The notes: generated by a model from the letters alone, not told the origin. Positions 3,476 through 43,809 are shown, counted from the whole stretch's first letter. The stretch: 55,508 bases of DNA, filler included, from Jimgerdemannia flammicorona (GCA_003990765.1; 2 parts of 2 records of this genome joined end to end with filler, not necessarily neighbours in it); one strand, 5' to 3'. Made by a program: numbers and translations.

Positions 3476-3477
3476 TT

Positions 3478-3495: not shown

Positions 3496-3526
3496 GATTT
3501 CAAAATCGATATGACTTTTCAGCTCA

Positions 3527-5040: not shown

Positions 5041-5049
5041 CTGAAGCCC

Positions 5050-6489: not shown

Positions 6490-6905
6490 GGATATTGCCC
6501 AGTATGCCCTGCTGCACCCCAAGGCCAAACCCCTGACCAAAGCCCACCTTGAGGATGTAGGATATGATCTTCACAGCCTGGAGGATGAATCTATCAAGCC
6601 TGGAAAAACCTTTATGATCAGAACTGGATTAGTCATGCAGCCACCCCAAGGAGCTTATATTCAACTGACCCCAAGGTCCAGACATTCCAGACAAGGGATA
6701 ACTGTAGAAGGAGGAACCATTGACCTAGGATATTCAGGCGAAATAAAGGTTATCTTATACAATAGCAGTGCAGAATGGCACCAAATCATTAGAGGACAGA
6801 AGATTGTCCAAGCAGTCTTCATGAAGGTCAAGACTCCACAGTTACAGGAAGTCTCTGAACTAACTGAAGGAATAAGACAAGCCAAGGAATTTGGAAGCTC
6901 AGACA
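6490..6905 (+). pseudogene. dut: E1 trimeric dUTPase domain, between PR and RT
   Basis: Motifs VGYDL, PRSR, GGTIDLGYSGEI, KIVQAV and RQAKEFGSSD correspond to dUTPase motifs I-V with decay. Confidence 0.92.
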
Positions 6906-7399
6906 GGAAGGAGGTGCATCTCCTTCAAGTCAACCACCTCAAGAGGAATGTTCCCCAGCAAGTGTACTGGCAACCAGTTAGACTGCACAAGAATCTCATT
7001 CTGGAGCCTGGAGAACAAACTACCTTCGAAATCTTTGCACCACCTGACCCCAGAAATCTTTTCTTTGAACCCAAGGAAGATATCCCACATCTGGACATAG
7101 AGGGATACACATTCCCTGACAAAATGAACCCAGTACACTCTCAAGCAACCAACCAAAGTTGGGAGACCATCATCTTGCTGAAAGGAACAATCATAGGACA
7201 TCTGGTGCCTTTTCTCAATCGAACTCATAGGGAAGTTTATGAACTAAACCTATCGGGAAACAGTAAAAGGTCCCAGAAGAAAGGAAAGGCCCCTCTGCGA
7301 CCCAGGAGACAGTGAAGCCTTCCACCAACATTGGAGAAGAATTGACACCTCAACAATAACAACAACAACTTGTAGAACTTCTCAACAAATATCAAGATA

Positions 7400-8730
7400 T
7401 CTTCACCACCAATTATGGCAATTTACCATACAACTCATTATATTAACACAGCATAAATACAGGAAGTGCAACACCCATCCAGCAAAAACCCTATAGAATA
7501 TCCCATCACTTGAAAACATTTGAAAAAGAGCACATTCAAGAACTCTTAGACAATGGAGTCATCCAACCCTCTACTAGCCCCTGGGCTAGCCCTATACTTA
7601 TTGTACCAAAGAAAGGAGGATGGAGACTTTGTGTGGATTACAGGAAACTCAATTCAGTCACCAAAAAGGATGCCTATCCTCTGCCCAGAATCGATGACCT
7701 TTTGGACCAGTTATAAGATGCCAGATATTTCAGCAGTATAGACCTCTTTGCAGGATTCCATGAGATCCCCATGGACCCCAAAGACATTCAAAAGACAGCC
7801 TTCCTTGCTCTAGGAAAACTGTTTGTATACCTCTGAATGCCCTTTGAACTCTGCAATGCACCCCCCACCTTTCAGAGGATGATGAATTCAGTCTATGCCC
7901 CCTTGATCCATCACTGCCTAATTGTATACATGGATGATTCCAATATTTATTCAGCAAATTTCAAGGAACACCTGCACCACCTAGAGGAATTCTTCAAGCT
8001 CACCCACAAGAATCACTTGAGATTGAATGCAAAGAAATGCTACTTTGGAAAACAGAAACTTGAATTTCTGGGATTCATGGTTTCAAAAGAAGGAACTCAT
8101 GCAGACCCAAATAAAACTGAGAAGATCAACAATTGGCCAGTACCCAAGACTCCAAAAGAAATATTATCATTCCTGATGCTAGTATCCTACTACAGAAGGT
8201 TTATCAAAGATTTTGCCCAAATCGCTGCCCCAATCTGGATCCTTCTCAAGAAAGGAATACCATTCAAATGGACAGAATCACAGGAAAATGCCTTCAGAGA
8301 ACTCAAGAACTGCATGACTACAGCACTAATCCTTGTGCACCCCAATCTACAGAAGCCATTCATCTTTTATACAGATGCTTCCAAAGATGGCCTAGGAGCA
8401 GTTCTAGTCTAAGAAGGACCCAACCAATAGTACCATGTGATAGCTTATGTAAGCAGAGCTACCAATCAGCAGCAGATGAACTATGGTAGCACCAAACTGG
8501 AATGTCTTGCAGTCATATGGGCAGTTACTCTGTTCAAGCATTACCTCATTAGAAAAAGGTTCACCCTGATCACAGACCATGCAGCCCTCAAATAGCTATT
8601 CAACTACAAGGAATCTGCTGGAATCCTAGCCCACTGGATCCTTATCCTTCAGGATTACAAAATCACCATTATTCACAAAGCAGGGAAAGCCTATAACAAT
8701 GTTGATATACTTTCCTGCTAGCTCCAATGA
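7400..8730 (+). pseudogene. pol: E1 reverse transcriptase and RNase H
   Basis: [74 protein letters not shown]. Confidence 0.95.
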
Positions 8731-9794
8731 ATCAGAAGAAGGGTTTCCTGAGGAACCACACTCTGAAGGAAGCTCCTCAGACCATCAAGGAACAAGAAAA
8801 TCTCATCCAACAAGTATATCAGAAAGCCCACTAAGGACAGACATGCAAAGAAGATAAGATTCGAAAACAACATCAACATTGGCCCCACCTCAGAACCCAA
8901 GTCCAAGACATCATTCAGAAATGTAACATCTGCCAGAAGTATCAAGAAAAGAAGAACTATCAAGCCCCTCTGCAACCGATTCCCCCACCCACTCACATCT
9001 TTCAAAGATGGGGAGTAGATGTAATTGGACCTCTACCAGTTACACCAAGAAGAAACAAATACATTCTTGTATTTGTGGAACATCTGAGCAAGTGGCCTGA
9101 GGCATTTCCAATGGATATCACAGATGCCTTAACTATTGTAGGCCTCCTCCATAGACTCACACTCAGATATGGACCCCCAGAAGAACTCATCTCTGACTGA
9201 GGCATAGAATTCATCAACAACATAATCATAAGTTATGCCCGAATTCACAAGATCCACCTCAAAAGGACCACATCATACCACCCCCAGACCAATGGCATGA
9301 TAGAGAGAATGAACTAGACCATTAAGAAAGAACTTGCCCGAGTCAATCCTACTAATTGGGACCTCTGCTTACCTGAGATCCTATGGGAAATTCGGAACAC
9401 CCCTGCTGTATCCACCAAACAAAAGCCATTTGAAATGATGTTTGCCAAGAGAACCAGAACTGCTGACCATGAGAATCTCAGAGACCTCCTCAAGAAGGCA
9501 GAACAGTTATATAATCAAGCCCAAGGACAGATTATCAAAGCCCAGGAAAGACAAAAGAAGTACTATAACCAAAAACAGACAGATCAGGAGATCAAGATTG
9601 GAGATCAAGTCCTAGTTTAGAGAAGCATGATTGAGACAAACTTTGCTGCCAAACTAGAACTGAAAAGGAAAGGACCTTATCTTGTACATAACATCAGAGG
9701 AACCAGTATCTATTTAAGAAGCATAGATGGATGAACCCTGAGAACACCAGTACACATCAATCACCTCAAGCTATATTTCCCCTCTACACTATGA
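8727..9794 (+). pseudogene. int: E1 integrase, separate ORF with its own ATG
   Basis: ATG at 8727 overlaps the RH-frame TGA (ATGA). HHCC (AH...CNIC), DVIGPLP, YHPQTNGMIERMN, KGPYLV. Stop at 9792-9794. Confidence 0.88.
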
Positions 9795-10305
9795 GCCAAA
9801 GGATTGATCAGTGCCTCCAGACATTGGTCCTCAGCTCCTTCTAAGCTCTATCAGTCCCTCTACCCCAATTTAGCCAAGTCAATGGAAGTCCCCTTCAAAG
9901 GATCCAATTCACCAGAAAAATCTTACCTTGGCCAGATGCCTACTACAAGTCTACCAACTGCAGGTCTATTATACAATCAGTGAACAATTGCAGAACCTCC
10001 CAGCCCCAGAACAGACCTACATCAGGAACACCACAGGTCTGACCAGAAGAGATACTACTGCTGCAGACAGACTATATACTATTTATAAATGAAATGTCAC
10101 AGCCCTGACACAGGCACAATTCTCCCTGAATAATATTTAAGGAATGAACTCTGTTACCTATTTGAGTATCATCAACTCTGTCAAAATCCTATTCTCTAAA
10201 GAAGAAGAAGAGCCCATAGAATGGAGTGACCCCAGTACAGATAATGAAGATGATGGAATAGGTATAGATACAGAAGCAGCCTATGCTTATTGGAATGATG
10301 ACTAA
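9791..10305 (+). pseudogene. E1 accessory ORF3, unknown function; one frameshift and internal stops
   Basis: ATG overlaps the integrase TGA. Manual translation gives ...LQVYYTISEQL...TAADRLYTIYK*NVTAL... plus an acidic tail EEEEPIEWSDPSTDNEDDG, similar in pattern to ORF3 of E2 and E4. Confidence 0.6.
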
Positions 10306-10344
10306 AGAATAGTCTGGGACAGACTACCCTTCAGTGGGGGCTGA

Positions 10345-11471
10345 TGTGATAAACCAAAACATACCACTCAAATTATATCTTAACTGGATGACACAAATAA
10401 TTAGGCAAGATAATATGAACATACAGCATAGTAACCAGCAACCATTGCTGTGGAAAACTGTATAAATAGTCAGACATACCAGAAAGGGTCTGTTTACCTG
10501 TACAGACTCTGTACACCTGCCATAAGTAGCAGATCTATAGTTAGCCACATAGTAACCAGATATGTAGCAACCAACTTGTATAAATTACCCCAGAGACAAG
10601 AGTGAATAAATCTCAGTCCGAAAAGTCTGAAATTCAAAGCAAAAGACAAGTCTGCCTACTATACTTCGAGAGGAACTTTACAACCACTGCTAGGAGATTG
10701 TGAGCTTATTTCCCCTTTCCACTCTGATCTACTTTCTGATATAAAGAACAAGTTTGTTTTTGGTTCACTTGTCAGATAAGCCTGAAGATTTGCCACCTAA
10801 GTTCAAGGAGAACTTTGCCACCTTTGAGTAACTCGCCACTTAAGGAATAAGCTGCCATTTTCAAGAAGCCCACTAATTCAGGAGAATCTGTATCATCTGC
10901 TGTTTACAAGTTATCCACATTCCCAGAAGACTCATGCCATCTGAGTAGTATTCTCAGTTGAAGTTGAACCTGTGATATCCAAGTTATTTATTATTTCCAG
11001 TGAACCTGTTGCAGAAGAATCCATGCCATACAATTCCCAGTGAGCCAAATTGAGTTATCCGCCAAATTATCAGAACATCCACATAAGGAATCTGCCATAC
11101 TACACAGAGATTGTCACACAGAGATCATCATGCTATACAGAGATCATTGTACCAAGACCATCACTCAGAAATCACACACTTTTGGAAACCACTCATGCTA
11201 TACACAAATTCTGCCATTCCCAGTTGACCCAAGAAGGAAACCTGTTCACACATATACAAATCACTGCTATGCCCAGAGAACCATCCCAATTAGGAAATTG
11301 ATATACAAATTGCTTCCAGATATCTAGTTTTGACTATTATACTGCTAAACACCAAGGACCTCAGAAATCTTAGGACATTTTATTGCTTTTTGACAAAGTA
11401 ACTAAGGGCTCAAGCCAAACTACATCAACCCCCAACCTTGTAATTTGCCTCCATTGAGCCAGTACATTATA
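10345..11471 (+). repeat. E1 3' LTR (1127 bp)
   Basis: TGTGATAAACC...CATTATA, preceded by the PPT and followed by TSD ATAT. Confidence 0.95.
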
Positions 11472-13291
11472 ATATAAATATATAGTATCTGAAGTAATAA
11501 ACAGAACTCTTCTTTTTTCTTTCTCACTTATTTATAATAAAGATTATAAGCTCTACTAGTACTTAATAGCTAAGAAATATCTCTCTAATACTATATATTA
11601 TTCTATAATAAGATATTACAAAAGATCAATCAAGAAGCCAGTATAAGTATGCTAAGTACATATGTCAAATACAGCCACTAATATAGGTACTATAATGAGA
11701 AATATAGTTTTTACTATTATAAGTATAGCTAAGAGTTTTATCTCAATTTTCAATAGAAAAGAATATATTATTTAAGTATTCTATATAATAAATCTCCTTG
11801 ACAAATATGACTTAGTAGAGTATATAAAACTACAAGTACAAATTTAAGATTATAAACTATAAATAATTACTAAGTATTATATAAGATTATATTTACATTA
11901 GCAAATTTCTAAATAAAATTTATAATATACATTATAATAGCCTACAAGACATGAGAAGCTTTATATAATTATTATATATAAGTATCTATATAGAATTAAT
12001 TTCTCTGAAATCTCACTTATTTAATCTATAAATAAAGTCTAATAATAAAAAGAGTATCTATGAGTATACTAATTATATTGATAATCTGATAAATCAAGTA
12101 AATTCTCTCAGCATATCTATAGATTATATAGGAGATAAAGATAAGGTTTTATTACTTATAAGAGTTCTCTTAGAAGTATATAATATTGTCATTATAATCA
12201 TATTTAAGAATAGCAAGCTTACAGATTATACTTACATAATAATAAGCCTTATCAATGAAAGAATATTCTACCAATACTACAGATATAGTAAGAAATGTCA
12301 ATAAGAATAAAATTATAATTATTATTACTATAATAATATAGATATATATAAAATAATTGCTATTATATATATATAAGAAAAGAGAAGATAAAAATGAGTA
12401 TAGAAAGACTAGCATAGATATAATAAAGAGAAGTATGATAATATAAATATTCCTGAAACTAATAACAATATTGTGGTATATTCTTTATATAAGAAATATA
12501 TATAGATGATAGTTTTACTATCAAATCTACCAATCTACTATCTACTACTAGCTCTATCAGTTCTGTAAGTATGAGATCTACAAGCAGTTCTACCACTAAC
12601 CTAATATCTATAACCAGCTGGCAAAACACTTTTGGGATAATGAAAAGTAGTAATATTAATCTTACACCTACTGAATATACTAATACAGCTAATGATAATA
12701 ATGTCTGGCTTATAACTTCAGGAGTTATATAGTATATGACAGCATATAGGATATAGTTCTCTATATATGAGTCTTTCAAATATCCTATACCTATTAAACT
12801 AGGTAATAATAATATAACATATTCTTAAGAAAAAGGAAATGTAGAGATATATCTCTATAGAAATATTGTAGAGTCTGCTGGTATCTTTCTAGATATACTA
12901 TATACTCTGAAGATAGATAATAATCTTTTATCTATAGGAAAGATAATGATCTATAGTAATAAAGAAATATATATATTTAAATAGTATAATGGTCTATGAC
13001 TTAAATAATAATAAGTTGATAAGAACCTCAAAATGAGATAATATTTATATAATCAATAGTATACCAAATAGTACAGTAAATATCTCTTCATATATAACAA
13101 CTATACCTGATATATCTAATATATAATATTAATACTTAGGATAAGCCAGAAAAGAATAATTAGGAACAGATCTATAAAAGAATTATTAGAAATATATTCT
13201 GAGAGATTGTATAGGGGATAAAGCATTCTGGTAAATATTTGATAAATGATTAAAGTATACCTCTGGGATTCTAGATCTTATATATATATAT

Positions 13292-14823
13292 TGTCATATA
13301 GTGGTCACTGAGTCCTTCAAATATACCAGATTCTCTTTAAGGTGTATCTCTTAGACTAACTCAAGTTTGTTATAAGCAAGTTCTTATTAGAGTGCCTTCC
13401 CAAGGTCTTATAGTCCTCAAACTTCTTATCTTTAAACAATCTTGTTATCTCTTAGATTGCTTGCAAGGGATTATATATAAGTGAACCAGAACTGACTTTA
13501 TTTCAGAGGAAATAAGAGGGGTATTTATACAAAATATAATTCAATGGTTGCTAAGATATAAAGCTAAATATAAATTCTAATAACTAAAACTACTAAGTTC
13601 CAGGGTTGGCACTGATGGTTGTACAGGTTCAGGATACCAGTATAATTCAATATTATGTCAGAATACCGGTACTGGCATTATTCAGTATTATCTCAGAATG
13701 CTAGTGCTGGCATTATTCAGTGTAACATAATAAGGAACTTAGAGCAGAATGTTCAAGATCATGGGGGCTTCATTCTCATCATCACTGAAGGATATGAGAT
13801 CTGTGAATTTGTCATTGTCATGCAGGTTGCGCATCCTGTATACTTTACATACTTCATCATGCATTTCGCATATATCAAAATCATGTGAGATGATGTCATT
13901 GCCAATGATATCATCACATTCAGTGGCAGGAAGGAGGTCTGGGGCTCTCTAGTCTATGAGGTTCTCTTCCACAAAATAGGGAACAAATATGGCATCTGGG
14001 GGAGGTCTAACCTGGATGCTTGGGCCTTGGAATACTGAGATCAATCCTTGCAGGAATTGGTCTGGGTTGTTCTGAAGGATGGGATGCCAGAAGTCTTCTA
14101 CTTCATCACTATTGAGGGTGATAGTGGACTGGGCTTCTGTAGTCACCCTGGCTTCTAGTGTGTTGATATGGTGAGATGACAGGTCTCTGAAATCTGAGAC
14201 TCTAACATACTCTAAGTTGGGGATCAACCATGGTACATGTCTGAAGATCTGATAGATCTTCTTAGCTATCCTCATTTCGCATATATCCATGGGAGTAGTA
14301 TCTTATAGCTCTTGAGTACTGGCCTGTGGGAACTTCTGGCAGAGGAGGTTTCCTATTTCATACTCCTGCCACATTTGGAGTCATTCAGTAGCAATGGTAA
14401 TTCTGGTTTCCATTTTCCAGTAATAGAGAATATAGTGATAAGAGTCACCAGTACCCAGGTTGACACTTGGAGTCCTTCTTGAGCAGGTCCTCATAGCTCT
14501 TCTGATGTCTTGGAACATTCTTTCTTCAACTGAGGTGCCTTGGTGGTTCCTTGACCTTGAGGTTTGGTGGGCAGCAGGCATTTCATTTGTAGTAAGTCTT
14601 TGGGCTATTTTGGGATTGGTGGGTCTTATTGGTTGCTGTTACTATGGTTTCTTGATCCTTCTTTTATATTTCTCAAGATACTTATACTGTGGTCACAATG
14701 ACTCACAGTTGGTCATCATTGCTCATCTCATATACTATATGATCTCCTTATGCTCTGATCTGATAGCTTATGAGAAAAGGCTGTCTCCTGTGCTGATGTC
14801 ATCATTCTGAGGTCACCATTACA
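13292..14823 (-). repeat. E2 3' LTR (1532 bp) containing a disrupted copy of the LTR ORF (13739-14581)
   Basis: Colinear with 20521-22052. ORF fragments 14381-14581 and 13949-14290 match the 280-aa ORF. Minus-strand TATAAATA at ~13523-13530 and AATAAA at 13497-13502. Confidence 0.95.
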
Positions 14824-15187
14824 TCTTCCTCCTGAATAAGGATCTTCTTGAGTATCCTTATTCATTGGTCCAGTCCTGAAAAATTTGCTTATCTCATAAT
14901 CTCTGGCAAGGGGTTAAAAAGTGGTATTTATAGGTTGGCATCTTCTCTTTGTATTTTGGTATGATGGTGAAAGGTTGTTCCCTTCATATAGAGCAAGGGC
15001 CTGATTCTGATCTTGACCAATCAGTTGATGGTTCAAATTCCTCTGACTTCAAAAGTCTCATAGATGAGTAGTTGCCAGTACCATATCTCTTAGAGAATGG
15101 TCCAGACAGATAGCCTGCTGGTTATGGGACATGCTGTTATGATTCACAGACTAGAACCTCATAGACAGTCATCACATTTTGTTACTC

Positions 15188-16388
15188 TTATATAGATTCA
15201 TAGTACTTCTTGAGTCTGTTCCTATATACTATGGTAGGCAGTATGGTCCCTGAGATTTTTCTAAGCCAGAAGGTAGTTCTTTTGATATCTTGCACATAGA
15301 AGGGTCCTTCCCATTTGAGCTCCAGTTTTCACAACTATGAGGCTTCTACCATATTTTGATACAGTAGAACCTTTTCTCCAATTCAGATGGGTTCTAGAGT
15401 CTTGTGATTCTTTTCTGCATTCTTTTTTGTCAGTACTTATGACTTGGTGATGTAATCTTCAGCCTTCTTCCTGATTTGGTGTAGTCTCCAGATTTCTGCA
15501 TCAACCTGTCTCTAAGTTAGGTCTAGATTTGTGACTGAGGTTCCATCAGAATCTTCTTCTTTGAAGAGCAGCTCTCTTGGAGTAAAGTGTGTGCTCTGTG
15601 ACCATATATCTCATAGGACAGAGAGGGTAGTTGGGAGATAGTTATCCCAATTCTCATATGTCTCTGAGATCTTCACTAGAATGTTCTTGAGGGTCTTGTT
15701 GGTTCTCTCTGTCTGTCCATTTTCTTGAGGGTGGTACATGGTGGTCTTGATGTGCTGGATCTTGTATTTCTGATACATTATCTCATAGAATCTATTGACA
15801 AATTCTGTGCTACAGTCTGTTGTGATTCACCTTGGTGTCTTATAGTGGTAGATGATTTCTCAGTACAGGAAGTCAGCTATAGAGAGGACATTGGCTTCTT
15901 GTAATGCTGCTGCCTCTATCTATTTAGTAAAGTGGTCTATAATAACTATAATATAGCAGTTTCCTGATAGTGTTACTGGTAGTGGCCCAATGATATCTAT
16001 TGTGATGTGGTGGAAGGGGATAGGCTCAATTCTTGATAACTCAGGTACTTGGTCTTGCTGATCTTATTTCTGTTTTTAGCACTTGTCACACCCTTTGACA
16101 AATTGGCACAGGTCTTCTTCCATCTTGGGCCACCATATGGTTCTTCTTGCCTTATTGTATGTATGTGTTGATTCCTCCTAAGTGTCCTTGCTTGTGTACT
16201 TCCTTCATTACTTGATACTTCTTGTATTCAGATATTACTAGCTTTCCTTCTTTTCTGAGTATAGTGTTGTCTAGTTCTAACTGTTTCCAAGTCCAGTTGA
16301 TGATGGTGATTGTCCAGAGTTTGAGGTGGTTGGACATCTTCTGCTGCTCAAGGTAGCTGATTAATCCATAGTATAGCTCCTTATTCAT
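15188..16388 (-). pseudogene. int: E2 integrase, separate ORF starting MNKELYY
   Basis: The RH frame ends ADTLSRIPQNTPIKTI*, then an ATG in another frame. VHKQGHLG, WWPKM, CDKC, DIIGPLP, YHPQENGQTE, WEGPF. Confidence 0.88.
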
Positions 16389-16389
16389 G

Positions 16390-17780
16390 TTAAATTGTCT
16401 TGATGGGAGTGTTTTGGGGTATCCTTGAGAGTGTATCAGCATTGGTGTTAGTTCTTCCTAAGCAGTACTTGATAGTACAGTCATACTCTTACAGTCTGTA
16501 GATCTATCTGGCATATATTCCTTTGGAGTTCAGGGTGTGGAATAGCCAGACAAGGGTGGAATAGTCTGTTTGAATGGTGAAGTATTTCCCAGCTAGGTAG
16601 TAGTGAAACTTGTCTACTGCCCAAACTACTGCTAAGTATTCAAGCTTGCATGACTTATAGTTCTGTTCTACTCTATGGGTACCTTGGCTTGCATAGGAGA
16701 TGACATATTCATATCCATCTTTCTTCTGAGCCAGGACTGCTCCAAGTCCTATAGCACTTATATCTGTTTGCAGGATAAATTCTAGGTTCCAATCTGGTCT
16801 TCTGAGGATAGGTGCTTGGGTCAATCTGGTCTTGAGTTCATTGAAGGTTTCTTGGTGCTCCTTGGTCCATTCAAATTTTGTTTCCTTCTTCAGTAGCTCA
16901 TAGATAGGTGCTGCAATGTTGGAGTATCCTTTGATAAATCTTCTGTAGTGGCTGGCCAGTTCAAGGAAGGCATGGACTTCTGTAGTTGTTCTGGATCTCA
17001 GATAGACTGCAACGGCCTTGATCTTTATGGGGTCTGTGTGGATTCCAGTCTGGTTGATGAGGTGTCCTAGGTAGGCAATTTTCTGAGCTGCAAACTTGCA
17101 TTTCTTGGGCTTGATATAGAGACCATGCTCCTTGAGCTTCTTGAGGGCTAGCTGTATGTGATTGACATGTTCCCATGTAGTGTTGCCAAAGATGATCATA
17201 TCATCAACATAGACAAAGAGCCATTTTCCAATTGCATTACTGAAGACTCTGTTCATCATTTGCTGAAAACTTGCTGGGGTATTGCACATTCCAAATGGTA
17301 TTCACAGATAGATATAGGTGGCATCAGGTGTGATGAAGGCTGATTTCTCACTGGCATCTTGAGTGAGACCAATCTGATGGAAGCCTGAGATCAGATCCAA
17401 GGTGGTGTAGTATTTGGCTTCGCTTCCAAGAGTTGTAAGGATTTCTTGAATATTTGGCAAGAGCTGCCTATCCTTCTTGGTGATGGCATTGAGCTTCCTG
17501 TAGTCAATATAGAGTCTTGGCATAAACTCTCTAGGCTTGTTTCCTTTCTTTGGGGTAAGGACAATGGGTGAGGTCCAGGGGCTGATAGCTTGCTTGATGA
17601 TTCTGGCTTCTTCCATTTCCTTGAGTTCTGCTTATAGCCATTCTCTGTAGGCAGGTGGTATGGGTCTGGCTTTCTGGTAGATGGGCTTGGTATCACTAGT
17701 GTCAACTTCATGATAGTACTTAGGTTCTTGATAGTGGATATCCCTAAAGTCTGTAGCAAGTACTCCTTCATTCTGGTACA
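16390..17780 (-). pseudogene. pol: E2 RT and RNase H
   Basis: SPWTSPIVL, IDYRKLN, LDLISGFHQI, YVDD, QTDISAIGLGAVL, LAVVWAV. Confidence 0.95.
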
Positions 17781-17899
17781 GGATCTTGAGAAGTTGTTCC
17801 TCTAGGGGAAAGTTTTCTCTGATAGTATATATGTACTTGTTCTGGTCCTTGTCTTTCTTGTGCTCAAGTTTGGTAATCTTGGTGGCAGCATAGGCTCCT

Positions 17900-18315
17900 C
17901 TTCCAGTAGATCCAAAGCCTTGTTCTCCTCTCTTGGTCTTGATGAATTCAATGGCTTCTATGATCTTGGGCTTCTTGATTTTGTGGATCAGCATCTGGCC
18001 AATCCTATCATGCTTCTTGACTTCGAAGGAGGTGGTGTGGTTATGATTTCTGACTATGAGAAAGATCTTGCCAGTGTAATCAGAATCAATTAATCCTCCT
18101 TTAACTGAGATTTTGCTTTTGGTCAGACTGCTCCTAGTCTTGATAATTCCGGCATAGTTCTCTGGCAGCTTGACTCCAATTCCAGTACCAAGTAGGGTGG
18201 TGGTCTGTGGTTCAAGAGTAGCATCTTGAATGCTGGCAAGGTCTATTCCTATGGCTCCTTCAGTCTTGTATTCTGGGATCTTGGCTTCAGAGTGAAACTT
18301 CTTGACCTTGAGGGT
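17900..18315 (-). pseudogene. dut: E2 dUTPase
   Basis: KIPEYKTEGAIGIDL, LLGTGIGV, KTRSSL, GGLIDSDYTGKI, RGEQGFGSTG. Confidence 0.92.
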
Positions 18316-18659
18316 GATGTCTGATTCTTGTTCCTCCTCATCATCACTGTCAGCCTAAAGCTCTGGGGGCTGGTCATCTACTTTGGCTTTCCTTTTTGCT
18401 TTGGTGGCTTCTTGCTCATGTTTCTGTTGGTGGATTTTTCTGACTTCACTGATACAGGACCAGCAGTCATTCAGGTGTTCAGAGCAGTGCATCCTAGTAC
18501 TATGGGGGTATCTTTCTTGAGGGGCATAGCCATCAATGATCTTGTTGTACCACTGCTCATCTGTGAGCTTGGGTGTCTTGTTCTTGTTCTTGTTCACCAA
18601 GTGCATGAAGACCTCTGTGTTCTCTTCATCTTCTTCCTCCTTATCTAGTAGGACTCCTT

Positions 18660-19030
18660 TGTGGACATTGATAGAGACTCATATCTTTCTTTCTCTATAG
18701 TTGATCTGCATCTTCTGGAAATTGAGGTCAATGATGGCCTTGGCCTTGTAAAGCCATTGGTTGCCAATGAGGATGTCATAGTTAGTGGTGCTTGTAACAA
18801 TTATGTCTACTGAGATAGTAGCTCCTCTTATCTTGATGGAGACTCTTGGATTTTGCCAAGGTGGATAGCTCATGTACCATCTGCTGTAATATAGACCATC
18901 TTGGTGGACTCTTCAATATCCCAACCTAGGCAGTCAATTGCCTTCTTGCTCATGAGGTATCCTCCAGCATCAGTATCAATGATAGCATCAAAGATACAGT
19001 CTTCAATCTGGTAGGGGGTATAGGCTGATG
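18660..19030 (-). pseudogene. E2 aspartic protease
   Basis: FDAIIDTDAGG (decayed DTGA) and YDILIGNQWL. Confidence 0.88.
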
Positions 19031-19099
19031 TCTTGTGCTAATCTTCAGATTCTTCACCTGAGTTTTCAGATTCTTCCTGTGCATTGTGAGCTTCTACAA

Positions 19100-20500
19100 T
19101 CTTGTACTCTTGATTCTTGGCAGTGGTTGTAAGTCCTACTCTCAACTGCTATCTGAAGGCAGGGACTTTGGCTAGTTGTCCAAAAGTAGCATTGATCTTC
19201 TGTTCCTTGAGTCCTTGTAGATATCATACTGGTGGATCTTAGTCTTATATAGCTTCTGTTCCTTTTTACTTTCACTTTCTCCTGAGACTGGAGTAGTGCC
19301 TTCAATAATTTGGTGGGCAGCTTCATCTAACTCTATATCTTGATCAATCTTCTTGGGTTGGGTCTTGCTTTGAATAGTGATAGCTAGGGTCTTCTTTGGT
19401 CTTCTAACTGGCTTGCTGTTGCTCTTCCTGTCATAGGGCTTGGACTGGGTTCTGGTACCTTCAGTAGTAGGGTAGAATTCAAGCTCCTTATAGTATTTTT
19501 CATCATCAGTATCACCAATCTCCTTGATGACTACTGCATTAGTTTGTTCTCTGGTTCTGCTGACATTGCTTGGTTGGGCTTTGTATCTTGTTTTGGTCAT
19601 GCAACTCTTTGCATAGTGGCCTTCTTCTCCACATCTGAAGCATGTGATATTGTGTTCTTCTATAGCAGCTGCAAATCTCTACACTGGTCTCCTGTTGGTA
19701 CTTCAAACTTCTCTAACAACATCACCAAGGTGTGCAGTCATCTTGGCAAACTGCTTGGTGAATTCTTCCACTGGGTCAGCTTTGGTTATCTTGGGGGTAG
19801 GTAGGGTTGGTTGTCTGTTTACAACTGTAGCAGATATGATACTAGTTGGCTTTGATGGCTCCATCTTGATGTCAGTTATTTTCTCTATTAAGTATTCAGC
19901 AGAGTATCTGGCAGTCCAATATCTCTATACAAAGACCACTTTCTGATCAAGGGTCAGTATAGCTGGGGTACACCAGATTGCTAGGACAATTTCAGGGTGA
20001 ACTTCTTTGAGGAAGGTTGAATCTGCTATTTGTTCCTTGAGGCAGTCATCATATCAGCCAAGATAATCTGGTAGCATATATGAGTATAGAATGAGTTGGG
20101 ATCTTCACTAAGTTCCTGGCAGATAGTATTGAGTTGATCCTTGAGAGCTTGCTTGATCTCTTCAGTATAATATGTTCTGAGGAACACCTTCATGTTGGCA
20201 AGTTTGGCTGCACCAGCATCAGCAATAGTGGCTGCATTGAACTTGTCTCTGACAGGTCCTCTGAGACTAACTGGTAGAAGGGCCAATTGAGCATCCACAC
20301 TAAGGGCTCATATGGTGGCAAATTGTTCAAAGTCTTCAATGAAGATCAGGATTGACTCTTCAGTAGTATATCCATAGAATGTGGGGGGACACATTTCCAT
20401 CTTATCTTGAATTCTTGCAGGGGTGACTCTTGTAGTCAGAGTAGTTGTTGTGGGGGTTGTTTGTTTTTCAGCTTGAAAGTGAGGGATTCATCTTGAATCA
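19100..20500 (-). pseudogene. gag: E2 gag
   Basis: PPTFYGYTTEESILIFIEDFEQF capsid motif and CFRCGEEGHYAKSC knuckle at ~19600-19645. Colinear with E4 gag. Confidence 0.88.
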
Positions 20501-20520
20501 CCAGCCAATGAGTACCAAGT

Positions 20521-22052
20521 TGTCACATAATAGTTGCTGAGTCCTTCAAATATGGCAGATTCTCTTCAAGATGTATCTCTTAGACTAACTCAAGTTTGTT
20601 ATAAGCAAGTTCTTATTGGAGTGCCTTCCCAAGGTCTTATAGTCCTCAAACTTCTTATCTTTAAACTCTCTTGTTATCTCTTAGATTGCTTGCAAGAGAT
20701 TATGTGTAAGTGAACCAGAACTGACTTTATTTTAGAGAAAATAAGAGGTATATTTGTACAAAATATAATTCAATAGTTGCTAAGATATAAAGCTAAATAT
20801 AAATTCCAATAACTAAAACTACTAAGTTCCAGGGTCAGCACTGATGGTTGTATAGGTTCAGAATGTTGATATAATTTAGTGTTATATCAGAATACCAGTG
20901 CTGGCATTATTCAGTATTACCTCAGAATGCCAGTACTGGTATTATTTGGTATAACATAACAAGGGACTTAGAGCAGAATGTTCAAGATCATAGGGGCTTC
21001 ATCCTCATCATTATTGAAGGAGATGAGATCTGTGAATTCATCATCATCATGAAGATCACACATCTCACATACTTTGCATTCTTTGTTACACATTTCACAT
21101 ATGTCAAAGTCATGCAGGATGACATCATCACCAATGACATCATTATATTTGATAACAGGAAGGAGGTCTGGGGCTCTCCAGTCTATGAGATTCTCTTCCA
21201 CAAAATAGGGAACAAATGTGGGGTCTTGGAGAGGTCTAACCCAGATGCTTGGGCCTTGGAATACTGAGATCAATCCTTGTAGAAATTGGTCTGGATTGTC
21301 CTGAAGGATGGGATGCCAGAAGTCTTCTACTTCATCACTATTGAGGGTGATAGTGGACTGGACTTTTGTAGCCACTCTGGCTTCTAGTGTATTGATATAG
21401 TGAGATAATAGGTCTCTGAAATCTGAGACTCTAACATACTTCAAGTTGGGGATTGACCATGGTACATGCCTGAAGATCTGATGGATCTTCTTAGCTGTTC
21501 TCATTTTGCATATATCCATGAGAGTGGCATCTTGTAGCTCTTGAATACTGGCCTGTGGGAACTCCCGGCAGAGGAGGTTTCCTATTTCATACTCCTGCCA
21601 CATTTGGAGGCATTTGGTAGCAATAGTGATTCTGGTTTCCATTTCATAGTGGTAGAGGATATAGTGATAAGAGTCACCAGTACCCAGGTTAACACTAAGA
21701 GTCCTTCTTGAGTGGGTCCTCATAGCTCTTCTGATGTCTTGGAACATTCTTTCTTCAACTGAGATGCCTTGGTGGTTCCTTAACCTTGAGATTTGGTAGG
21801 CAGCAGGCATTTTATTTATGGTAAGTCTTTGGGCTATTTTGGGATTGGTGGGTCTTGTTAGTTGCTGTTACTATAGTTTCTTGATTCTTCTTTTATATTT
21901 CTCAAGATACTCATACTGTAGTTACAATGACTCACAGTTGGTCATCATTGCTCATCTCATATACTATATGATCTCCTTATGCTCTGATCTGGTGGCTTGT
22001 GATGAAAGGCTATCTCCTATACTGATGTCATCATTCTGAGGTCACCATTACA
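20521..22052 (-). repeat. E2 5' LTR (1532 bp)
   Basis: Paired with 13292-14823; adjacent PBS and TSD. Confidence 0.95.
20968..21810 (-). CDS. Intact 280-aa LTR-encoded accessory protein (ORF3 family) with a C-terminal Cys cluster and acidic tail
   Basis: Uninterrupted ATG-to-TAA ORF wholly inside the LTR, in element sense. TATAAAA about 80 nt upstream (21891-21897). Homologous to E4 ORF3. Confidence 0.75.
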   Translation of the reverse strand: MPAAYQISRLRNHQGISVEERMFQDIRRAMRTHSRRTLSVNLGTGDSYHYILYHYEMETRITIATKCLQMWQEYEIGNLLCREFPQASIQELQDATLMDICKMRTAKKIHQIFRHVPWSIPNLKYVRVSDFRDLLSHYINTLEARVATKVQSTITLNSDEVEDFWHPILQDNPDQFLQGLISVFQGPSIWVRPLQDPTFVPYFVEENLIDWRAPDLLPVIKYNDVIGDDVILHDFDICEMCNKECKVCEMCDLHDDDEFTDLISFNNDEDEAPMILNILL

Positions 22053-28998: not shown

Positions 28999-29844
28999 TT
29001 ATAAAGTGATTTTGAACTAACTAAATAAACCACCTGTTAATATATTTGTAACAGTTCTAGTTCTTTAAGAGGAAGTGGCTAAATCTGGAAGTTCTGATTG
29101 GCCTAAAGTAGCTCAAAGAGATACTTAAAGATTCAAGTATTCTTAAAGAATTTCTGAGAGAAAATATTCTGAGCTTTATTCAGGCAGAGAACAAGGATAT
29201 TTATACATAATCTGAAAGAAAGATCTGGAAGGATCTTGAAAAGAAAGAGAAATGCCAAGAAATAGATTCTTAGCAAAGCTGACTAATACTATTCTACAAT
29301 GTTCCAAAAGGTTCCATAACTAGCTAAGATAAGATATTTGATGCCAAGGAAAGACAAGAATGTTCTAGTGGTGTCTGAGTGCCAAGAGAAGGTTTCTAAG
29401 CAAGTAGAAGGTACCAGAATATAGTAGAATATTTAAGAAATGACAAGAAAAGACTAACTAAAAGATGTGAAAAATATACTAAGACTAAATATGACTGTGA
29501 AATTGTTACATCCCTCTCTTCTTAAGAATCAATATCCTCATTGAGTTCTTAGGTAATATAAGACTAGATATACTTAACCAAAATTTCTCAAACTTGAATT
29601 AGCATATTGGCAAGGATTGGCCATTCTTGTATAGAGTAGAGGGCCTATTACTAGACTAACCAACTGGGAGGAGTTCAAACCCAGCTAGTAGCTTTATTTC
29701 AGTAGACTTCTTATTCATTAAATGTTCTGCTAATTCCAGAGTCCCAAAGTAAACTTCTAATATATAAGACACTGATCATTACCATAGATTATCAACAATC
29801 CAAGGAAGTCACTATAGAGATTAGGCAATGTGTTTTATCTCAAA

Positions 29845-29995
29845 GTCTTGAACTAGATCTTGAGAGTTCTTGAGGTTGATCAGTGGTTCCCAGATAGTAT
29901 CATATTCAGGATAACCCATCCACTTGACTAGGTATTCAGAATAGTAGTAGTGGATTCATTTGTTAAGAATTTTCTCAGCTTCATACTTGATATGG
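29845..29995 (-). pseudogene. E3 chromodomain
   Basis: YEAEKILNK*IHYYYSEYLVKWMGYPEYDTIWEPLINLKNSQDLVQDF. Confidence 0.92.
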
Positions 29996-30029
29996 TCTTC
30001 AATAATCATAAGGGCAGAAGGCTTAGAAA

Positions 30030-33000
30030 TTTAACTAGGGTAGAGTAGTGACTGGTTCCAGATCTTGAGGTGTGACACATGAAAGACTGAGTGTACTCTC
30101 ATGATTTCAGGTAGCTTAAGACAGTAGGAGGATACAGAGACTTGTTCAGTGATCTTGAAAGGTCCAATATACTTGGGTTGGAACTTGTTTGAAGGGTAAT
30201 TGACTTGAGATTGTACATATCTTGAGATTCTCAGTAGATAGTAGGACTTGATCTTCAACAGTGTAAGTGACATCATGGTATTTCTTGTTAGTATACTTGG
30301 CTTAATTCTGTTGAGCCTTCTGAAGGTTCATAGTAGCAATCTTGAGTAGTTCATCCATCTTATCTGTAAGGTTCTTGGTTGTTAGGACTTATATTTGACT
30401 AGTTTTCTTGAAAGAAAATAGACTTGCAGGGGTCTCGGGATCTTAACCATAGAGTAACCAGAAAGGGAAAAGATCAGTAGATGATTGGACAGCATTGTTG
30501 TATGCAAACTCTGTATAAGTCAGGTAGATGTCTCAATTATCTTGCTCATAAAAAACATAGTTTCTAAGCATTTGTTCTAGAGTTCTATTCATGTGCTTGG
30601 TTTGTCCATCAGTTTGTAGATAAAAGGTAGTAGACATAGTCAATTGGGTTCTCAGAGTCTTGAAGAGGGTTTGCCAGAAGTGGTTGGTGAACTTGGGGTT
30701 GTGATTGCTAACAATTACTCATAGTAGACCATAGTAATAGAAGATGGACTTAAAAAAGATTCTTGCAATCTCAGGTGCAGTAGTATTGGTAGTGGTTGGT
30801 TTAGCAACCATAGTCTTGGTCAGGCAGTCAATGAATACAACAATAGCATCAGCATCAGATTGAGTTCATAGTAGTTGAGTTATAAAGTCTGTGGTGACTT
30901 GCTTGAACTTCTTAGTAGGAATTGGCAGTGGTTGTAGCAAACTGGCAAGCACTTGATTGGTAGACTTGTTGTACTAACATAGATCACAGCTGGCAATATA
31001 GTTCTTGATTTTCTTAACCATGTTTGGCCAATAGTAGTGGTGTTGGATGTTCTTAACAGTCTTCTCAATTCCCAGATAACCGACAAGAGGGGAGTTATGG
31101 TGTTCTTGCAAAATCTTATAGTGTAGGTTCATGTTTTCAGGTAGGTAGACTTGGTCTTAATGATAGATTAGATTGTTCTCAACAGTATATGTATCCTTGA
31201 GTTCATTCAAGAAAACTCTAGTAGCAACTGTATCTTCTTTGTAAGCTTGCCTGATTTGGTCTAGGAATTCTGATACCAAGGTAATTTGCATGATTGTGGT
31301 GAGGTCTGGGCACCTTGATAAAGCATCTGGTACTATAAATATCTTACCAGGCTTATAGATGATTGTTGGATTGAAGGTTTGAAGCTTAAGGCTCTACTTA
31401 GCTTGTAGACATAACAGAGTAGGTTGGGTATTGATGTACTTGAGAGATTGATGATCAGTAATGATATCAAACTCAACATCTTCTAGATAGTATTGCCAGT
31501 GATCTAGTGCATGTATTATTGCTAGTAGTTTCTTCTCATGAGTAGCTAGTTTTTGTTCAGCTGAGGCTAGCTTGTGGAACTCAAAAGCAATAGAGTGATG
31601 TCCTTTGCCATCATCTTGTAACTAGTGCTCCTAACGAGTCAATTTAATCCGGATTAGATTCGGATTGATTCGGATTGAATCCCATCCGAATCAACTCGGA
31701 TGGGATTCGAATCAACCATTGTTTTGATTTCCAAATTAGATAATTAAATGTTTACATCAATAACTCAATGAATAATCATCCAAATTTGATGATCTTGGTG
31801 TCATTTGAAAGCCCTTAATAAGGCCTATCTAATGATACCAAGAACATTGAAATCAGATCATGCGTTGCTGAGTTATGAAGGGAACCGTCTGAATCGCTGA
31901 TTTTGGAAATTCTTCGATTTGCCAATTTTGGAAATTTCATCAAATAGAACGTTTTCTTTAATATCTTGGCAACGCGCAATCCGATTTTAATGTTCTTGAT
32001 ATCATTAGAAAGGCCTTATTAAGGGCTTTCAAATGACACCAAGATCATCAAATTTGGATAATTATTCATCGAGTTATTGATGTAAACATTTAATTGTCCA
32101 ATTTGGAAATCAAAACAATGGTTGATTCGAATCCATCCAGATGGGATTCGAATCCAATCCGAGTTGATCCAGATGGGATTCGAATCCATCCGAATCCCAT
32201 CCGGATTGACTCGTTTGGAGCACTACTTGTAACAGGACTACTCTAATGGCAAAATTTGATATATCAGTGGTGACTATGAATTTTTGGCCTTGATCTGCAT
32301 TATGCAGGACTGGGGTATGGGTTAGGTAGTTCTTGAGTTCTTGAAAGGCTTATTGACAGAAGAGATCCCAGGTGTAAGATACATAGAGGTCTGAGTATGA
32401 GGTCTTCCTCATGAGATTAGTCAGTGGCTCAGCAATACCAGAGAAGTTTCTGACAAAGTGGTGATAATAGTCAGCTAGACCAAGGAAGGATTGGAGTTCA
32501 ATGAAATGGACTATTTTTCAATTGCTTCTATCTTGTGTGGGTCTACTTGAATTCCTTGTGCAGAGACAATGTGGCCAAGGTATTCAACTTGTTCTTTGAA
32601 GAATTTATACTTCTTGAGCTTGTCATAAAGCTTGTGTTTTTACAGGATCTCCAGGACTATTCGAATGTATTTGAGGTATTCTTCTTTAGTTATACTAAAG
32701 ATCAGGATGTTGTCAAGATATATCAATAGGAAAATAAATAGTTAGTCCTTAAATATCTTGTTCATCAGAGTCTGGAATATAGTGGGTGCATTGGTGTGAC
32801 CAAATACTAAGACCAGGAATTCATAGAGTCCAAAGGGGGTCATGAATGCAGTCTTGAGAATGTCTTCTGGCTTGATTTGAATCTGGTGGTATTCTGACAT
32901 GAGATCTAACTTAGTGAAGTACTTGGCATTCTTAAGAGTATTAAAGATTTGATTAATCAAGAATAATGGATAATAGTTCTTGATAGTGAGTTTGTTGAGT

Positions 33001-33260
33001 GCACAATAGTCTATATATATTCACAGAGTACCATTCTTCTTCTTGATGAATAAGACTGATAAGCCATAATGAGATTTGCTTGGCTGGATGACTCCTCATA
33101 TAAGTAGTTTTTCTAGTTCCTTCTTGACTGCTTCAATTTCAAGTGGTGACATATGGTATATGTGTTTCTTAGGTGGTACTGCTCCTGGGGTCAGTTCAAT
33201 TTCATGATCAACTTCTTGTATAGGTGGTAGGCTAGATAGCTTATCTGGAAAGATATCCTT
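30030..33260 (-). pseudogene. pol: E3 RT-RNase H-integrase, split by a MITE at 31623-32225
   Basis: KYFTKLDL, KTAFMTPFGLYEF, YLDNIL (from YLDD), EKKLLAII, HNSPLVGYLG, YYWPNM, YLQTDGQT, PKYIGPFKI, VHSVFHVSHLK. Confidence 0.92.
31623..32225. mobile_element. Young non-autonomous hAT-type MITE (603 bp), almost fully palindromic
   Basis: TIRs TAGTGCTCC.AACGAGTCAAT. Perfect 8-bp TSD CTTGTAAC (31615-31622 / 32226-32233). GATTC/GAATC subterminal repeats. Long inverted arms ~31705-31875 vs ~31960-32135. CpGs intact. Confidence 0.92.
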
Positions 33261-33469
33261 GAATTCCTCTAGCAATAGCTTGATGCTTTTATTGACTGAT
33301 AGTCTCTTGTCTTATTTCTTGGGGTGGATTATTACATATAATAAAAGCATACATTGCCTTCTTGAGTGCTTTCTTATACTGTATAGCTGACAGTATTGCA
33401 ATCTGGGCCTTGTTCATAGTCTTGTCTATCTTGATCATAATGTTAGCTCCATCTTGAAGTAAGGTGACT

Positions 33470-33790
33470 TCATTCTTATACCAATCAATGTCTGGATTGT
33501 GTTTCATAAGCCAGGGTTTTCCTAAGATCAGATTATGATCTCTTAGTGGTGCAATCTTGAAGTCTACTCATTCTCAATATTTCTGGATCTTGATGGGCAG
33601 TTTGGTGGCAATTGACTTGATGGGGTGCAGAGTATCATCTGCAGTAACTATACTATTGTTCTTGGGTGCAGACTTAGTGAGAATCTTGAGGTTTTTGATG
33701 AGATTCTGATTGATAAAGTTTCCTGCAGCTCTGCTGTCTATGAGTACTTGAACTTCTTTTCCTTTGACTAGGCCTTTGAAAATGAGTATA
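33470..33790 (-). pseudogene. E3 aspartic protease
   Basis: KGLVKGKEVQVLIDSRAAGNFI (decayed DSGA) and HNLILGKPWL. Confidence 0.9.
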
Positions 33791-33814
33791 GCTTGAGCTC
33801 AATTTTCACTAAGA

Positions 33815-34240
33815 CTTGCTGCTTGATCAGTACCACCAAAACCCTTTTGATCTTATTTGGTTTCAGGGAGTTCTTGGACTTCTATAATCTTGAGTTGACT
33901 GGCTTTTTTCAGAATCATTTACATGACTCAGTCTTCTTCTTTAACTATGTAGTCTTGATCCTTCTGGTTGATGAGTAAGACTTGAACTTATCCTTGAAAG
34001 TCTGAGTCAATGACACCAGTGCCTACATCTAAATGATGTTTGACACTGAGTCCTGATTGTTGTGTAATTCTAGTATAATATCCTTCAGGACATTGGACTG
34101 TAATTCCAGTAGGCACCAGAGTATGGCTCTTATCTGGAATAGTAACTTGTTTGAATACATGTAGGTCAAGACCAATGGCTCCTTCTGTTTGATATTGAGG
34201 GACCTGGGCCTTTGAATGAAGCTTCTTGATCTTGAGCTCA
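33815..34240 (-). pseudogene. dut: E3 dUTPase, upstream of the protease
   Basis: PQYQTEGAIGLDL, LVPTGI, QQSGLSVKH, GTGVIDSDFQG, ETK*DQKGFGGTD. Confidence 0.92.
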
Positions 34241-34289
34241 AGTTGACTGATAGTAGGATTGATAGGTGTGTCCTTGGATAACACAGTAA

Positions 34290-35210
34290 CTGGTCTTGAG
34301 AGTTCACTAGTCTTTCTAGGACATTTGATTGCAATGTGTCCTGTTTGGTGACAGAAGAAACAAGCTCCAGATTTCTTCAGGCAGTCCTTTTCTTCAGGGG
34401 TAAGCTTGGTGTTCTTTTTGTTCATGGTGTCTAAGTCCATTGGTGCTGGGCCAACTATCCTTAGTTGGTTTCTATAGTGGTTCTTGAAGTAGTTCTTTTT
34501 GTGGCATTCTGGTTTGAAGCAGTTGTCAAAGGTGATGATATCAAATCTATCAGCAATTCTCATAGCTTTATCAAGAGTTTTGGGCTCTTTCAGCTCAACC
34601 TTGACTCATGTGTTTCTCTTCAGACCTCAGACATAGCAGTCTATCTTTTTATTCTCAGATACCACTGATAGCTCAAGTAGAATTGACAAGAATTGTATAT
34701 TGTAGACTTAAGTTACTTGATGTTTGCTAGCTTGTCCCTGGCTAGCTTGGTAGCATTAGCAGACTTGAACTACTTATGAAGAGCTCTCTTGAAAGCTTCC
34801 CAATCTCTGATTCATACATATATGAGTATATAGATATAACCATGATATGATTGTATCACAAGATAGCTATATTTCCTCAGAAAAGTATAGTAGTGAATTG
34901 GACTTACATGTCATCTTCCATTCTTGTGAGCTTAAAGTATTAATCCAATTAGAAGGTCCATGTATCTGTAGATAGTCCTCCTCAATGGCCATCAAAGGTG
35001 TCTGGCTTGAGTGGCTTGAAACTGACTAGTGCTATAGCAGGATGTGATATATCTATAGTTTGTATTTTCTGCTATTCTAGTTGTACTTGAAGTTCTTGGA
35101 TTTGATGGGCCATAGTATTGATTATATCTTCTATGTTGAGTTGTAATCCTCTTACTTCTTCTGTAGCAGAGGGGTCTAACTGGTAGACTGACTCTTCACA
35201 GCTCATTTTG
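34290..35210 (-). pseudogene. gag: E3 gag
   Basis: KPLKPDTFDG, GPAPMDLD, CFFCHQTGHIAIKC knuckle. Confidence 0.88.
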
Positions 35211-43347: not shown

Positions 43348-43809
43348 CTATTCAAACTCCCAGGCTTCAATGGTCTGTATGGTCTTGTACTGTGCGATTT
43401 GCTGCATAACTGTTTCCCAATGATGTCTTCTCACTTTCTCGAAGTCAGTAGGGGTTACTCCTCTCAGGTGGTCTATTGCTGCTTCATCTTCTCGGAATAG
43501 CTTGTGGATCCTTTTGGCAATAGTGATCTGTGAGTGGGAGAGTTGACACTCGGCAATCTAGTCCTCCTTAGTCTTTGCTGGATCCTGATTGAGCACCTGT
43601 CCAAGCTTGAAGTACTCTTGAAATTCTGCCCGATATTGATAGGCTCTGAAGTGTGAAATCCGAGAGAGATGAGTCTGCACAATACTCTGAATATCCTCAT
43701 AGTATAGCTCTATGGTCAGAGGCTCAGTGGTGTGCTATTGTCTTTTGATGGCTCTTTGGGCAGCACTAGTGATCTTGAGTACCATCATGGTACTTTTGTT
43801 ACTGGCCAT
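43348..43809 (-). pseudogene. E4 accessory ORF3 (~153 aa, two internal TAG stops)
   Basis: Manual translation MASNKSTMMVLKITSAAQRAIKRQ*...EFQEYFKLGQVL...IAKRIHKLFREDEAAIDHLRGVTPTDFEKVRRHHWETV. The ATG overlaps the end of integrase. Confidence 0.8.

Follow-up and report, generated by a model that had tools for sequence, protein, structure and literature searches.

The nef gene of the human and simian immunodeficiency viruses (HIV/SIV) and the bel/tas genes of foamy viruses are 3' accessory genes which overlap or abut U3, the unique 3' portion of a long terminal repeat (LTR). They overlap U3 only in part and start in the internal region. In foamy viruses the transactivator is driven from a separate internal promoter, and a second promoter has been reported in U3 of the mouse mammary tumour virus (MMTV). 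The nearest functional parallel to the gene studied here is sag of MMTV, a whole accessory open reading frame (ORF) inside a long LTR U3, which is therefore duplicated in both LTRs. According to passages of one paper (PMC3026287), the MMTV LTR is about 1.3 kb long because Sag is encoded there, the translation of Sag uses spliced mRNAs which begin in the 5' LTR or in env, and endogenous MMTV copies mostly keep sag while the virion genes decay. For LTR retrotransposons, a review (PMC7264820) states that additional ORFs (aORFs), described from plants, lie mainly between pol and the 3' LTR, are lineage-specific genes without an assigned function and are conserved in most copies of a family; four phrases which would place a gene in the LTR do not occur in its text. 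An 'add. ORF' is named for some fungal elements in a figure legend of a further paper (PMC2864245). Our own literature search, based on crude phrase matching and with subscription journals outside its reach, did not yield any Gypsy element whose LTR contains a gene. In the following we describe an ORF of 843 nt which resides in both LTRs of E2, a decayed Ty3/Gypsy element. E2 was found in a stretch of 55,508 nucleotides of Jimgerdemannia flammicorona DNA (GCA_003990765.1; two parts joined with filler), which is called the window; all coordinates are counted from its first letter.

We consider it likely, with a probability of about 0.7, that the E2 lineage of dUTPase-bearing Ty3/Gypsy elements possesses a true accessory protein gene embedded in U3 of the LTR. 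As in the case of sag, the complete ORF lies inside U3, whose border was drawn from motifs, and the LTR is long (1.5 kb in E2 compared with about 1.3 kb in MMTV). The two systems differ with respect to the carrier, which is a retrovirus in one case and a Ty3/Gypsy retrotransposon in the other, and with respect to the product: Sag is a type II membrane glycoprotein, whereas the E2 ORF has neither sequence homology to Sag, judged by Pfam scans at E ≤ 1 for the ORF and at E ≤ 0.1 for 21 family members, nor a run resembling a membrane anchor. A comparison of the ORF protein with viral structure libraries gave no sequence or fold similarity. Unlike in sag, a conserved TATA motif (TATA1) is located directly upstream of the E2 ORF within U3, which suggests an unspliced, LTR-contained mRNA; TATA1 may play the part that the internal promoter plays in foamy viruses. 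The position described for aORFs is exactly that of a probable homologue in the sister element E5, whereas the gene of E2 is found inside the LTR. With their start in the internal region, nef and bel/tas likewise resemble E5 more than E2.

The original prediction had claimed that both LTRs of E2 carry the same sense ORF, and that it is intact in the 5' LTR and interrupted in the 3' LTR. Self-comparison of the window confirmed both statements: the two LTRs of 1533 nt each differ at 164 positions without any indel (89.3% identity), and the 843-nt frame encodes 280 amino acids in the 5' LTR but contains three in-frame stops, and no frameshift, in the 3' LTR. Measured from stop to stop, the frame of the 5' LTR spans 299 codons. 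In contrast, when the LTR was shuffled 2000 times with dinucleotides kept, the longest of six frames had a median length of 80 codons and never exceeded 182.

Protein searches with the ORF identified 24 relatives in metagenome protein sets, cluster members included. A word-indexed search matched 6 of 278 candidates, an exhaustive read of 1.84 billion proteins yielded five representative clusters, and a profile search with the family matched 12 of the 8000 candidates scored; among 7282 longer candidates scored, no fused form of the ORF was found. Sequence identity to the window protein ranges from about 80% down to 28-33%, and P0022 and P0002 share 27% of their residues. In relatives at 27-41% identity the frame is open and the start is conserved. 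Eight sequences (the window ORF, P0002, P0007, P0009, P0012, P0014, P0021, and P0022) begin with MP[AP], the core LE..VA..S.I..S...W.P.L.DN.DQ....L...F.GP.I is common to all members, and most near-full members carry an acidic stretch and LNFLL or a variant of it at the C-terminus. These alignments show a small orphan family, whose frame has been kept open and conserved across deep subfamilies to about 27-33% identity.

One relative, L001, was found as DNA in a metagenome scan, where it is a single locus of 1345 nt with an intact frame of 323 amino acids; viral and prokaryote-genome collections contained no further DNA copies. In the comparison with L001, codon-level constraint was found: for the 215 well-aligned codons of the 5' LTR ORF, pN was 0.235, pS 0.682, and omega (the ratio of nonsynonymous to synonymous divergence) 0.157; omega was 0.214 for all 275 aligned codons and 0.151 for 271 codons of the 3' LTR copy. 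As synonymous divergence (dS) is near saturation, these omega values of about 0.16-0.21 are rough. Differences from L001 at codon positions 1, 2, and 3 number 67, 45, and 99, and comprise 114 transitions and 97 transversions. The direction is clear: judged by these codon patterns, the family has evolved as a protein under purifying selection. We conclude that the E2 LTR ORF is no chance frame but a genuine protein gene, which was under constraint in the past.

The assignment of the ORF to U3 depends on the promoter signals of the LTR. Downstream of the ORF, a second TATA motif (TATA2) and an AATAAA poly(A) signal form a module at LTR positions 1295-1327. TATA2 is mutated in the 5' LTR (CAAATATACC) and intact in the 3' LTR (TATAAATACCCC); TGTATAAATACCCCTC is common to the E2 3' LTR and L001, and the E5 LTR has TATAAATAACCC instead. 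The AATAAA of E2 aligns with GAATAAACCTCAG of L001 and E5, and the TATAAATA/AATAAA module is kept downstream of the ORF in L001. Due to this conservation in the E2 3' LTR, L001, and E5, the module can be regarded as the core promoter and poly(A) unit of the clade; since the ORF is located upstream of it, the ORF belongs to U3, as had been predicted. The prediction of a TATAAAA of its own about 80 nt before the ATG was equally borne out: the distance is 87 nt, and TATA1 is conserved in L001 despite a divergence of about 30%. It is part of the 10-nt block AATATAAAAG, which is invariant in three of three DNA copies (5' LTR, 3' LTR, L001), in surroundings where the likeness is no more than about 60-70%. 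L001 contains neither an ATG between TATA1 and the ORF start nor, between the ORF stop and TATA2, a purine tract followed by TG as expected for a boundary of polypurine tract (PPT) and LTR. Thus, L001 looks like a copy with the same in-LTR layout as E2. Table 1 lists the coordinates of all features. Note that a motif adjoining the palindromic AATRCCAGYACTGGYATT, ATTCTGAGGT, recurs as reverse complement at the extreme 5' end of the LTR (22032-22042). The AATRCCAGYACTGGYATT copies are possible enhancer or transcription-factor sites; taken together, the AATRCCAGYACTGGYATT and ATTCTGAGGT motifs may represent factor-binding sites or remains of an insertion boundary.

Table 1. Positions of the E2 element, its LTR-borne ORF and signals, and the related frame of E5 in the window
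Feature	Position	Strand	LTR position	Remarks
E2, decayed Ty3/Gypsy element	13291..22052	(-)		LTR pair, Pfam domains, many broken frames
E2 5' LTR	20520..22052	(-)		1533 nt; starts TGTAATGG, ends GACAA; sequence resembling a primer-binding site (PBS) next
TATA1 (TATAAAA)	21897-21891	(-)	156	87 nt upstream of ATG; putative ORF promoter; 3' LTR copy at 14662-14668
ORF ATG	21810	(-)	243	first ATG past TATA1; A at -3
Intact LTR ORF	20968..21810	(-)	243-1085	843 nt, 280 amino acids from ATG
ORF stop	20970-20968	(-)	1083-1085	
Palindromic motif AATRCCAGYACTGGYATT, two copies	20891..20943	(-)		past ORF stop, upstream of TATA2; inverted repeat I2 with 18-nt arms, 94% complementary
TATA2, main LTR promoter site	20755-20749 (5' LTR), 13529-13524 (3' LTR)	(-)	about 1295	
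AATAAA poly(A) signal	20731-20726 (5' LTR), 13502-13497 (3' LTR)	(-)	1322	27 nt past TATA2
E2 LTR end	20520	(-)	1533	
E2 PBS-like sequence CTTGGTACTCATTGGCTGG	20501..20519	(-)		resembles CTTGGTGCCCATTGGCTAG after E5 5' LTR
E2 zinc-knuckle gag	19172-19678	(-)		Pfam scan
E2 dUTPase	17632-18354	(-)		Pfam scan
E2 reverse transcriptase (RT) and RNase H	16504-17301	(-)		Pfam scan
E2 PPT AGGAGGAAGA	14824..14833	(-)		abuts 3' LTR; homologous AGGAGGAAGT precedes E5 3' LTR
E2 3' LTR	13291..14823	(-)		1533 nt; PPT AGGAGGAAGA directly before
3' LTR copy of ORF	13739..14581	(-)		3 in-frame stops, 0 frameshifts
Probable remote ORF homologue in E5	43348..43809	(-)		frame of 153 codons with two internal stops; past pol and ahead of 3' LTR

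The sister element E5 (LTRs at 42833-43310 and 49080-49557) has a pol which is 71% similar to that of E2 and an LTR of 478 nt without the ORF. When the family profile was compared with six-frame pieces of the window, a single match outside E2 was obtained (43351-43557, minus strand; HMMER E 1.1e-6). Aligned with the family, the corresponding E5 frame gave an hhalign probability of 90% (E 1.4e-6); it matched P0021 over 22 residues (BLASTP E 7e-5), and a reverse tblastn from this frame led back to the LTR ORFs of E2, with E 2.6e-4 for one and 5.3e-4 for the other. By these similarities, the E5 frame is probably a remote homologue of the N-terminal half of the LTR ORF. Its ATG shares nucleotides with the final codons and the stop of pol (ATGGCCAGTAA, 43800-43812, minus strand), a compact, virus-like gene junction, and its other end is 38 nt short of the PPT AGGAGGAAGT and the LTR start TGTGATGG. 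A probable homologue following pol in E5 points to a gene owned by the clade, and the comparison suggests an old, clade-specific accessory gene. Only the E5 homologue occupies the internal position past pol and before the PPT; in E2 the ORF lies past the PPT, and nothing similar to the ORF family or to E5 ORF3 was found in the 370 nt which separate pol from the PPT. We rejected the idea that the PPT had simply shifted upstream and so brought the ORF into U3, as E2 and E5 have a homologous junction of PPT and LTR start; likewise, a duplication of gag was rejected as the source of the ORF (hhalign probability 0.07%). In E1, another Gypsy copy of the window, positions 9692-10089 (plus strand, before the 3' LTR) show a weak, colinear, non-significant similarity to the family (HMMER E 0.4-4.7; tblastn from E5 ORF3 0.89). 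This may be a third, more decayed homologue, which we do not claim.

An alternative placement would put the ORF into a very long R or leader. TATA1 would then be the real LTR promoter and the ORF the first cistron ('ORF0') of the genomic RNA, with the 5' AATAAA being read through. In favor of this arrangement, TATA1 is the canonical and better conserved motif in the 5' LTR, where TATA2 is mutated. However, the E2 3' LTR, L001, and the ORF-less 478-nt LTR of E5 have all kept TATA2 and the AATAAA 27 nt further on, and the E5 LTR is not detectably similar to the 5' part of the E2 LTR, which contains TATA1. In addition, it would be unusual for R to measure about 1.15 kb and for gag to be preceded by a cistron of 843 nt. 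We therefore regard this arrangement as improbable. There is also little chance that the ORF is foreign cargo, i.e. a fragment of a transduced host gene or a small unrelated mobile element, which was nested in the LTR before its last copying. Beyond the termini and the promoter module, the LTRs of E2 and E5 share no detectable similarity, which would allow for an insertion into a short ancestral LTR, and a perfect inverted repeat of 11 nt (I8; 22032-22042 and 20919-20929) brackets the ORF region; roughly estimated, chance alone would give about 0.3 pairs of this kind. On the other hand, no relative outside the family was detected in 1.84 billion representatives, the 7282 longer candidates, Pfam, and PDB sequences. 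Several deep subfamilies share the start and the TATA1-ORF-TATA2 layout, unlike one-off transductions, and a probable homologue lies right past pol in E5. Transduced aORFs occur in one or few copies, as stated in the review (PMC7264820); here, neither such a restriction nor a cellular donor was seen, given the deep subfamilies and the lack of other relatives in the protein sets searched. Neither a host-gene capture nor a nested foreign element is supported as the ORF's source. Finally, the frame could be a chance ORF or a non-functional relic, whose protein was never made. The neutral drift of the copy at hand and the lack of any matching known domain or fold agree with this notion, but the shuffles never reach 299 codons, the low omega and the excess of third-position differences relative to L001 indicate coding constraint, and the frame is open, with a conserved start, in distant relatives. 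The notion is largely refuted and thus very improbable.

Several findings nevertheless weigh against an accessory gene in U3. The E5 homologue resides outside the LTR, and all relatives of the ORF stem from short JGI/ENA metagenome contigs without informative protein names. The L001 contig, with its 1345 nt the sole foreign DNA copy, ends short of any LTR end, so that for other lineages residence in an LTR is presumptive. The transcription start site (TSS), the poly(A) site, and the U3/R/U5 borders were derived from motifs alone. Between the two LTRs of E2, the ORF has diverged by 11.9% and the non-coding part by 9.3%. Comparing the two LTR copies gives an omega of 0.35. A neutral simulation of 1000 runs, which used the observed spectrum of 92% transitions and the Nei-Gojobori omega, yielded 0.49 +/- 0.12, and 8.8% of its runs were as low as the observed value. 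The neutral expectation is 3.2 stops per 100 changes, and three were observed, all of them in the 3' LTR. After 50 changes, a simulated frame was still open in 14% of the runs; the intact 5' copy is therefore a matter of luck and no sign of selection after insertion. Two AlphaFold2 models of the protein are of low confidence, with a mean pLDDT (predicted local distance difference test) of 54.5 and 48.8, which leaves composition as the basis for any statement on function.

E2 as present in the window is a dead copy, with broken internal genes and neutral drift in both LTR ORFs. Of the 164 differences between the LTRs, 151 are transitions, as are 92 of the 100 within the ORF. Polarization with L001, a noisy procedure which left 55 of the 164 sites unpolarized, put C>T in CpA, the most frequent class of change, and G>A in TpG ahead of all others. 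CpG is strongly depleted, with an observed/expected ratio of 0.17 for the window and of 0.02-0.07 for the LTRs. The depletion of CpG and the excess of transitions are a signature of methylation and deamination or of a process like repeat-induced point mutation (RIP). This decay probably also bears on the C-terminus of the product, which had been described as a Cys-rich motif plus a D/E-rich tail. The acidic tail is common among family members, but the motif CEMCNKECKVCEMC occurs in the 5' LTR copy only; the 3' LTR has CEMHDEVCKVYRMR instead, and in close relatives this site is either missing or an arginine (e.g. EVRETRDL in P0001 compared with KVCEMCDL in the window). The number of cysteines in long family members varies from 0 to 8. 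The motif probably reflects the decay of E2 or lineage-specific drift; its interpretation as a zinc site was rejected.

If the ORF is an accessory gene of U3, its expression can be sketched as follows. Transcription of the ORF would start about 30 nt past TATA1, near position 21860, so that the ATG of the ORF would be the first AUG of the transcript. The latter would be polyadenylated past the LTR's own AATAAA, at about 20710, giving an unspliced mRNA of about 1.15 kb from any copy of the LTR. The genomic RNA would start at TATA2, downstream of the ORF; for this reason it would contain the ORF at its 3' end only, and the AATAAA would be used only at the 3' LTR. Reverse transcription would then copy the ORF into both LTRs. 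The original prediction had seen the LTR as a self-contained cassette of promoter, gene, and poly(A) signal, which is able to outlive the element. The cassette fits the sequence; the copy at hand, which shows no constraint after insertion, gives no sign of survival beyond the element.

With respect to function, the similarity searches gave little guidance. At E ≤ 1, Pfam returned only a weak TBPIP_C match for the ORF, and for 21 family members, scanned at E ≤ 0.1, there was likewise nothing beyond noise below the threshold. The profile search of PDB sequences with the ORF family gave no match at E ≤ 1, and the ESM Atlas contained no usable match for the ORF (an RT piece found only generic RT clusters). 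Both AlphaFold2 models consist of helices at about residues 18-150, a short beta hairpin around residues 200-212, and a disordered tail. The best hit of the fold search VIA among 48161 chains had a Z-score of 4.4, with none at Z ≥ 5, and Foldseek found nothing at E ≤ 0.001 in BFVD and PDB; rows with a MarR-like fold at Z of about 3 were rejected as common helical arrangements. The structure prediction which had been proposed along with the ORF thus led to no known fold. A scan for promoters of the bacterial type was set aside as irrelevant to a eukaryotic element. In five of seven long members the first 40 residues have a net charge of +5 to +8; the part after residue 215 has a net charge of -10 to -27 and contains 20-30% D+E. 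The composition check of the ORF protein revealed no hydrophobic run of at least 12 residues. This composition fits a soluble protein, possibly a nuclear regulator with an acidic effector tail. A nuclear trans-acting factor which promotes transcription of the element or counters silencing by the host is compatible with the composition, but such a role is doubtful and can be put forward only tentatively. The most far-reaching model, in which the LTR is an autonomous gene of this Gypsy clade, seems rather unlikely. There would be two cassettes per full-length copy and one per solo LTR, encoding a nuclear trans-acting factor which boosts the transcription of the family or blunts its silencing. 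Dead copies and solo LTRs would supply this 'public good' to the survivors, and the gene would have moved across the PPT/LTR boundary (after pol in E5, in U3 in E2).

The classification of E2 is based on its overall organization. Direct LTRs with TG...CA ends, a PPT before the 3' LTR, and a PBS-like sequence after the 5' LTR were found. Both LTRs start with TGTAATGG and end with GACA(A), and the PBS-like TTGGTACTCATTGG/CTTGGTACTCATTGG directly follows the 5' LTR. As the internal genes are on the minus strand, the LTR at 20520-22052 is the 5' LTR. Since the flanks consist of (TA)n, nothing can be read from the target-site duplication. The order of elements is LTR, PBS, gag (zf-CCHC), dUTPase, RT/RNase H, integrase region, PPT, LTR, with zf-CCHC, dUTPase, and RVT_1 plus RT_RNaseH as successive Pfam domains. 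The integrase part was inferred via the nucleotide similarity of 71% to E5, one piece of which matches Integrase_H2C2; protease (PR) and Integrase_H2C2 were detected in E5. With PR and integrase supplied by E5, the gene order of gag zinc knuckle, PR, RT, RNase H, and integrase corresponds to Ty3/Gypsy, the frames of E2 being broken. In a basidiomycete element, such as PosPlaTy3-5 of Postia placenta, the dUTPase lies between PR and RT (PMC2864245, in part). Thus, dUTPase-bearing fungal Gypsy elements place this domain as does E2; the parts of that paper at hand mention no LTR-borne gene. The label 'fungal-type' given to E2 by the original prediction is plausible in view of this order, which is however no proof.

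The window is crowded with related Gypsy copies, further ones being located at 2114-11462 (plus strand), 29047-35759 (minus strand), 36969-39112, and 42833-49557 (minus strand). There are more dUTPase domains at 6209-7315 and 33988-34605, as well as further LTR pairs and one inverted partial copy; no host genes were seen among the window frames scanned. The 5' LTR of E1 is longer than its 3' LTR by about 216 nt (2619-2834), and the BLAST match is split into 2114-2618 and 2835-3466 versus 10347-11462, a pattern pointing to an insertion or deletion in one of the two LTRs. Of the letters of the window, 88 are N, and none of these lies within the LTRs or the ORF analyzed.

Genes wholly contained in an LTR are a hallmark of a few complex retroviruses, and the extra genes of retrotransposons are usually found between pol and the 3' LTR. 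If the E2 ORF is indeed an accessory gene of U3, a 'complex' genome organization would have arisen outside the retroviruses. Gene dosage would then scale with the number of LTRs, solo LTRs included, and the LTRs of this clade would not be purely regulatory DNA for the purposes of annotation or masking. E2 and E5 offer a tractable case for comparing a 3' accessory gene inside and outside U3 in sister lineages.

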